Source of the DNA: Escherichia coli
GTDB lineage: Bacteria; Pseudomonadota; Gammaproteobacteria; Enterobacterales; Enterobacteriaceae
Length of the DNA: 64,000 bases
NCBI RefSeq assembly: GCF_030384885.1
Contig: NZ_CP128613.1
Strand: one strand, 5' to 3'
Part shown: piece by piece, positions 29,170 through 29,350 of the stretch
Numbering within the stretch: the first letter of the stretch is position 1
How the letters are laid out: every line of letters starts with the position of its first letter
Notes under the pieces: model-generated
Seen by the model: only the letters and a program-made list of their open reading frames with translations
Database searches by the model: none
What the model was told of the DNA's origin: nothing
Program-made: the position numbers and the translations under genes

Positions 29170-29350
29170 CCGTTGTAGGCATGATAAGACGCGTCAGCGT
29201 CGCATCAGGCATCGGAGCGCAACCGCCGGATGCGGCGTGAACGCCTTATCCGACCTACGGGCCGCGTCCTTGTTGTGATAAAGGCATCAAATCCCAGGCA
29301 TGATAAGACGCGTCAGCGTCGCATCAGGCGATAAATGCCTGATGCGATAC
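29170..29350. repeat. BIME: cluster of REP (palindromic unit) sequences
   Basis: Two direct copies of CAGGCATGATAAGACGCGTCAGCGTCGCATCAGGC (about 29175-29212 and 29296-29331) plus an oppositely oriented GCCGGATGCGGCGTGAACGCCTTATCCGACCTAC (29224-29257). Confidence 0.88.

Follow-up and report, generated by a model that had tools for sequence, protein, structure and literature searches.

The spacer between the convergent Escherichia coli genes trhA (yqfA) and ygfZ, in the 64-kb stretch of DNA that we analyzed (the window), is a BIME made up of three full REP units and a truncated fourth. We consider it probable that this BIME is a two-way RNA 3'-end structure that forms a barrier to exonucleases, with Rho termination taking place downstream of it. 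The element is an ordinary one, of a kind known before. Its architecture is shared by K-12, since MG1655 has it in the same 195 bp at 3042294-3042488, and REP and BIME elements, their variation in copy number among strains, their targeting by IS621 and their roles in 3' UTRs have all been documented before.

Genes and REP units of the trhA-ygfZ spacer

The gene names trhA and ygfZ were taken from the RefSeq annotation of strain 2013C-4282, which is 100% identical to the window over the 611 bases around the BIME; only 20 records reach at least 99% identity over this 611-bp query. TrhA is a membrane protein of the PAQR/hemolysin-III family (RefSeq annotation and Pfam HlyIII), and YgfZ is a folate-binding tRNA-modification/Fe-S protein, in which Pfam also recognizes GCV_T. 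The two genes are convergent, with 195 bp between their stop codons (29162-29356), and the trhA mRNA enters the BIME from one side and the ygfZ mRNA from the other. All of the REP units are extragenic and lie inside this spacer, ~89% of which is covered by the cluster (29175-29347). The preliminary description of the locus spoke of a BIME of three REP units lying between yqfA and ygfZ as convergent genes. The consensus matches bear this out, as do the gene identities on which RefSeq and Pfam agree, and the further statement that the cluster takes up the whole intergenic region is right in essence.

Two open reading frames that reach into the spacer, 29055-29240 and 29300-29545, are present as mechanical ORFs. 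As candidates for small proteins both were rejected: neither has a Pfam match, neither appears in the RefSeq annotation, and they overlap the real genes out of frame or antisense. As had been proposed from the outset, they are best read as spurious, mechanical artefacts, and an annotation of this region should make no ORF calls in the spacer.

The 3' ends of the two genes (28762-29161 for trhA and 29357-29756 for ygfZ) differ from those of the other sampled E. coli lineages at 25-40 of 800 bases. This divergence of 3-5% seems high for core genes of E. coli.

Table 1. Features of the trhA-ygfZ junction. Positions are those of the window except where a record is named.
Feature	Position	Strand	Basis and remarks
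trhA (yqfA) CDS	28502-29161	+	ORF; RefSeq annotation of identical sequence; Pfam HlyIII, E 5e-39
REP1, Z2 type	29175-29210	+	34/36 to Z2 consensus, E 2e-11; GTAG at 29175-29178 (+)
Rfam RF02564 (naRNA4) match	29178-29255	- (ygfZ transcript strand)	model positions 1-77 of 77
Linker REP1-REP2, head-to-head	29211-29224		ATCGGAGCGCAACC, 14 nt; read from sequence
119-bp unit (linker, Y, linker, Z2)	29211-29329		missing from short allele; allele comparison
REP2, Y type	29225-29258	-	32/34 to Y consensus, E 3e-10; GTAG on - (CTAC at 29255-29258 on +)
Linker REP2-REP3, tail-to-tail	29259-29293		35 nt; unique to locus
REP3, Z2 type	29294-29329	+	32/34 to Z2 consensus over 29296-29329, E 4e-10; CCAG replaces GTAG
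Hybrid hairpin, REP3 head and fragment	29319-29347		11-12 bp stem, 7-nt loop
Truncated REP head	29337-29347	-	GCCTGATGCGA on + strand; inverted repeat with REP3 head; 11/11 to Z2 head
ygfZ CDS	29357-30337	-	ORF; RefSeq annotation; Pfam YgfZ_barrel, E 1e-35
IS621 insertions	L007:1707-3180; L097:1848-3202		site corresponds to 29178/29179 of the window

To locate REP units, the published consensus sequences of the three types, Y, Z1 and Z2 (quoted in PMC11208160), were compared with the window by blastn-short. Three imperfect palindromes of 30-40 nt match the Y or Z2 consensus (Table 1), and no further full REP was found in the 64 kb by this search or by a strict REP head pattern. The units alternate in orientation (+, -, +, then the - fragment) and are separated by linkers of 14, 35 and 7 nt, which is the composition by which a BIME is defined. 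The cores of REP1 and REP3 form a perfect 34-nt direct repeat (29177-29210 and 29296-29329, 100% identity) with a spacing of 119. The GTAG tail is kept in REP1 and REP2, whereas REP3 has CCAG at 29294-29297 in all of the E. coli alleles examined. Taken singly, the REP hairpins are predicted to fold at -14 to -17 kcal/mol (-13.9/-14.8 for REP1 and -15.3/-16.8 for REP2), with internal mismatches.

The fourth, partial REP was missed in the preliminary description. It begins 7 nt past REP3, is inverted relative to it, and matches the Z1 head at 13 of 14 positions if it is extended to 29350. Together with the head of REP3 it is predicted to form a hybrid hairpin of -21.9 kcal/mol on the + strand and -20.3 kcal/mol on the - strand, stronger than any single REP hairpin, and the MFE folds of the two strands both contain it. 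In the ygfZ 3' UTR no other structure precedes this hybrid hairpin, which has its onset 9 nt past the stop codon and is kept in the long, short and 5-REP alleles described below.

The tail-to-tail linker is specific to the trhA-ygfZ locus and does not represent a linker motif that BIMEs have in common: a 41-nt query covering it found a median of one place per genome, in 2,201 of 5,426 genomes. In the predicted folds, part of the linker is also paired with REP3, in the tail half of that unit, a hint that it may be a decayed REP remnant.

Class of the element

Three classes of BIME have been distinguished in E. coli (PMC3333891): BIME-1, composed of Z1 and Y with a conserved long linker that often has an IHF site; BIME-2, composed of Z2 and Y in tandem copies of variable number; and atypical BIMEs, which are mixtures. 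Both BIME-2 and atypical BIMEs have variable linkers (PMC3333891). At trhA-ygfZ the full REPs are Z2 and Y units only, in the order Z2-Y-Z2, and the number of REPs is 1, 3 or 5 in spacers of 76, 195 and 309 bp, respectively. On this Y and Z2 make-up, we file the cluster as a BIME-2 or atypical BIME. Like the elements described under those names by Gilson, Bachellier and Hofnung (PMC3333891), it has alternating Y and Z2 units with GTAG tails on REP1 and REP2, it is extragenic at gene 3' ends, and its copy number varies among strains. It differs from them in having only 1.5 repeat units, in the CCAG that REP3 carries instead of GTAG, and in ending with a truncated REP head; moreover, its tail-to-tail linker is a locus-unique 35 nt and not a shared short S motif. 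The linker motifs regarded as canonical for BIME-2 are S where tails meet and s, l or r where heads meet.

The cluster has a match above threshold to the Rfam family RF02564 (naRNA4), a model of one 77-nt Y-linker-Z2 unit of REP325 (PMC4550694). It scores 69.8 bits, where the gathering score is 59.5, and its E value, calculated for the whole window, is 2.7e-10. The same family scores 47 bits on the + strand and 27.9 bits at REP3, both below threshold, and the REP1-REP2 linker aligns to the linker of the model with low similarity. The trhA-ygfZ cluster is thus like REP325, at yjdM-yjdN, in having a 77-nt Y-linker-Z2 unit within a 3' UTR, transcribed from the upstream gene. REP325 has six such units between tandem genes, whereas one unit and an extra Z2 lie between convergent genes here, and the linker sequence differs.

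The name of this Rfam family, nucleoid-associated RNA 4, and the mention of IHF in the preliminary description would fit an element that binds IHF as a BIME-1 (RIP/RIB), or one that is the source of an naRNA condensing DNA with HU, but we find this hardly credible. No full Z1 unit was found in the 64-kb window by consensus blastn-short, the best match to the IHF consensus WATCAANNNNTTR in the spacer has two mismatches and was rejected as a site, the long linker is specific to the locus and is not the conserved L motif, and the compaction role of naRNA4/REP325 in the nucleoid was not reproduced and is disputed (bioRxiv 10.64898/2026.03.23.713779). The BIME-1 class was rejected on the first three of these points. 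From its sequence, IHF binding is not expected at the trhA-ygfZ BIME, because the best consensus match has two mismatches and the class is not Z1+Y+L, and annotators should not assume that the element belongs to an IHF-binding class.

The preliminary description had named gyrase alongside IHF as a ligand of BIMEs, and that half of the statement fares better, since the Y and Z2 class is linked to gyrase in the literature at the level of the family. Taken further, it would give the element a role in DNA rather than RNA, as a BIME-2-type gyrase site that clears positive supercoils between the convergent transcription units. The Y and Z2 composition is what such a site would have, and BIME-2 elements are enriched in gyrase cleavage sites, which fall for the most part in Y units (PMC6379681). 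However, cleavage affects no more than a subset of BIME-2 elements (PMC6379681), neither trhA nor ygfZ is named in those parts of the supplementary text of Sutormin et al. (PMC6379681) that were consulted, and there is a single Y unit in the long allele and none in the short allele carried by 58% of genomes, to which a gyrase-site role therefore cannot extend. Since it is in the Y units of some BIME-2 elements that cleavage is concentrated, we infer a link to gyrase by analogy and at the family level only, and a role as a gyrase site appears unlikely to account for this BIME.

RNA structure and transcript 3' ends

A terminator scan found no intrinsic terminator, that is, no GC-rich hairpin followed by a U-tract, on either strand within 29162-29356, and no internal promoter-like site was found in the same spacer. 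The RNA of the spacer is predicted to fold at -95 kcal/mol on the + strand (z -4.8 against shuffled controls) and at -88.9 kcal/mol on the - strand (z -4.4), and for REP1 and REP2 the predicted alternatives are a pair of local hairpins (-34 kcal/mol) and a single long one (-43 kcal/mol). Covariation in the Z2 stem among alleles is weak, with one compensated pair; as many or more arose in 29 of 500 shuffles, and the result is not significant. In both transcript directions, the RNA 100-200 nt past the BIME is C-rich and G-poor, with C/G ratios of 2.06 and 2.44.

In K-12, a region of Rho termination has been mapped on the ygfZ strand, with its peak at MG1655 3042772 (Rho score 8.3, p 1e-19; Adams et al., PMC7815308 supplementary file 2). 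The peak lies 479 nt past the ygfZ stop codon and ~284 nt past the BIME, in antisense trhA, and corresponds to about position 28878 of the window. No Rho region is reported for trhA transcripts in the tables of the same study (PMC7815308). As to mapped 3' ends, neither gene is named in the Term-seq tables searched, the tables of Adams et al. give the Rho region only, and a locus-specific look-up of 3' ends and gyrase in the supplements of Harris et al. returned differential-expression rows only.

REP hairpins are known to protect the 3' ends of Rho-terminated transcripts, which exonucleases trim back to the hairpins (PMC6061677), and REPs have been described as dual elements, partly Rho-dependent terminators and stabilizers (bioRxiv 10.64898/2026.03.23.713779). 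In the latter study, convergent gene pairs with a REP showed higher expression of both genes, and the effects of REPs were variable, with no general gain in half-life. By analogy with these systems, we infer that the trhA and ygfZ mRNAs are both transcribed into the palindromes, which would not be intrinsic terminators because they have no U-tract. Rho would then end transcription further downstream, inside the antisense of the opposite gene, and 3'-to-5' exonucleases would trim the transcripts back to the REP hairpins, which would determine where the steady-state 3' ends lie and protect them. The BIME would in this way act as a two-way stabilizer and partial terminator, and the Y unit may possibly be a gyrase site at the DNA level as well.

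The likeness to the REP-associated, Rho-terminated 3' ends (PMC6061677) and to the bidirectional REP terminators (bioRxiv 10.64898/2026.03.23.713779) extends to the hairpins that have no U-tract, to the C-rich RNA downstream and to the Rho-dependent region that lies downstream in K-12. At trhA-ygfZ, in contrast, Rho dependence is documented for the ygfZ direction only, and the 3' ends are predicted. It also counts against our best explanation that ~58% of genomes have one REP and the fragment only, and the extra Y-Z2 unit is therefore dispensable.

The closeness of the hairpins to the stop codons suggests another way in which they might act, namely by impeding terminating ribosomes and so lowering protein output. 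In 2015, Liang, Rudd and Deutscher reportedly described an effect of this sort for REPs near stop codons. Hairpins lie 9 nt after the ygfZ stop codon and 11-17 nt after that of trhA, and the hybrid hairpin, with its 11-12 bp, is the most stable local structure, at a predicted ~-20 to -22 kcal/mol. An effect on ribosomes may operate alongside the exonuclease barrier that we favor; as the explanation of the element, we judge it quite unlikely.

The same junction in other Enterobacterales

The barrier reading is also consistent with what is found at this junction outside E. coli. The same convergent gene pair was compared in 70 Enterobacterales genomes, in which the spacer measures 26-309 bp (median 72.5), and a strong GC-rich hairpin or a REP pair is present in all 70 of the trhA-ygfZ spacers. 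In distant genera there is a single hairpin, and in Citrobacter, Salmonella, Kluyvera and Pseudescherichia there is a tail-to-tail REP pair. The conserved position supports a structural role of hairpins at the junction.

In the nine records from genera that have no REPs here, the spacer is 26-40 bp long and is nearly all taken up by one GC-rich hairpin of 8-12 bp. Some of these hairpins are flanked by runs of A or T and resemble a compact bidirectional terminator.

Strain variation and the 119-bp deletion

The preliminary description had proposed comparing this interval across E. coli genomes, and the comparison revealed three states, 3-REP, 1-REP and IS621, among 5,426 complete genomes. With a 309-bp query the coverage statistic did not separate the alleles, whereas a query for the unique linker gave a clean count of 2,201 genomes with the 3-REP form (40.6% of the 5,426). 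The full, uninterrupted form was found in 2,167 genomes with a 321-bp query. About 3,130 genomes (~58%) have a 1-REP form of 76 bp, an approximate number that was obtained by subtraction.

The short allele is exactly 119 bp shorter than the long one (the records span 492 and 611 bases, respectively), and its 76-bp spacer is made up of the GTAG-bearing tail of REP1 and a single Z2 core, followed by the loop and the fragment. The trhA-ygfZ locus is unstable because its two Z2 units form the 34-nt direct repeat, and the short allele is the product expected of recombination or slippage between these two direct copies, either of which would remove exactly one 119-bp unit. The register of the deletion is ambiguous inside the repeat. 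The change runs from long to short, as the Y unit and the linkers could not arise de novo from a short allele.

Longer or long-type forms are also seen outside the main E. coli population. In a divergent Escherichia lineage ('E. coli' SCPM-O-B-8794, L008:2261-2569), with flanks that are 7-8% different, the spacer is 309 bp and holds five REPs and the fragment. This 5-REP allele was not found among the 5,426 complete E. coli genomes, in which the best matches to the 309-bp query span 272-275 bp and represent the 3-REP form. E. albertii has the long-type REP1-linker junction up to a contig break.

The two E. coli alleles occur on nearly the same backgrounds. OkiPb01705, with 195 bp, and TC24, with 76 bp, do not differ at any of 800 flanking bases, and PT109, with 76 bp, is 4-5 bases away in its flanks from K-12, MIN14 and A19, all of which have 195 bp. 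Moreover, the REP that is retained in short alleles carries the polymorphisms of the matching long haplotype. Judged from these alleles, the 119-bp deletion is recurrent: it has arisen again on near-identical flanking haplotypes, so that the locus, polymorphic as it is, is a homoplastic marker of little strength for phylogeny. The suggestion that REP content here is a useful strain marker therefore holds in so far as the content does vary (195 and 76 bp, and IS621), but its usefulness is weakened by the homoplasy, and for typing the locus is best regarded as dimorphic, with IS621 as a further state. Natural isogenic pairs such as OkiPb01705 and TC24 are well suited to testing the effect of one extra Y-Z2 unit on two convergent mRNAs.

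Insertions of IS621

IS621 is inserted in REP1 in 111 of the 5,426 genomes, 55989 and O103:H2 12009 among them. The junction is identical in each case, GTAG|GCCTGAT, and it occurs on both the 76-bp and the 195-bp backgrounds. IS621 belongs to the IS110 family, has a bridge-RNA recombinase, and naturally targets the REP sequence ATCAGGCCTAC, with a CT core (PMC11208160; PMC1525189). None of the three REPs of the window has this 11-nt target or ATCGGGCCTAC; they read ATCATGCCTAC in REP1 (- strand tail), ATCCGACCTAC in REP2 and ATCATGCCTGG in REP3. K-12-like REP1 alleles have the exact target and are the occupied ones, whereas the REP1 of the window is one mismatch away from it and is empty.

The freedom with which copy number has shifted, repeatedly and on identical flanks in E. 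coli, and up to five REPs in the divergent lineage, together with the tolerance of IS621 in 111 genomes, raises the question of whether the REPs are simply selfish or neutral passengers. On that account they would persist since a gap between convergent 3' ends tolerates insertions, and would have no host function here. Unrelated REP families are found at the same spot in other genera, and RAYT-type mobilization has been documented for E. coli BIMEs (PMC3333891), both of which are in keeping with it. On the other hand, all 70 Enterobacterales spacers retain a strong hairpin, including those of 26-40 bp that have no REPs, the hybrid hairpin beside ygfZ is kept in all E. coli alleles, and effects of REPs on expression have been reported genome-wide (bioRxiv 10.64898/2026.03.23.713779). 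We therefore regard a purely passenger status as somewhat improbable, and continue to favor the two-way 3'-end structure.

We also considered that recurrent gain and loss of the 119-bp unit, together with insertion of IS621, may act as a natural expression switch, which we hold to be doubtful. If it were true, the changes would affect how 3' ends form, how much read-through enters the opposite gene, or how translation terminates. Lineages with one, three and five REPs would then differ heritably in their levels of YgfZ and TrhA while coding and promoter sequences stayed unchanged. The functional core that is conserved throughout would then be the hybrid hairpin, which is invariant and lies 9 nt past the stop codon of ygfZ.

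Other structured RNAs in the window

Elsewhere in the window, two matches at the Rfam gathering level correspond to ordinary known genes of the region: a SIB RNA (antitoxin sRNA) at 14892-15042 on the - strand (139.8 bits) and the 6S/SsrS RNA at 15691-15874, also on the - strand (138.1 bits).
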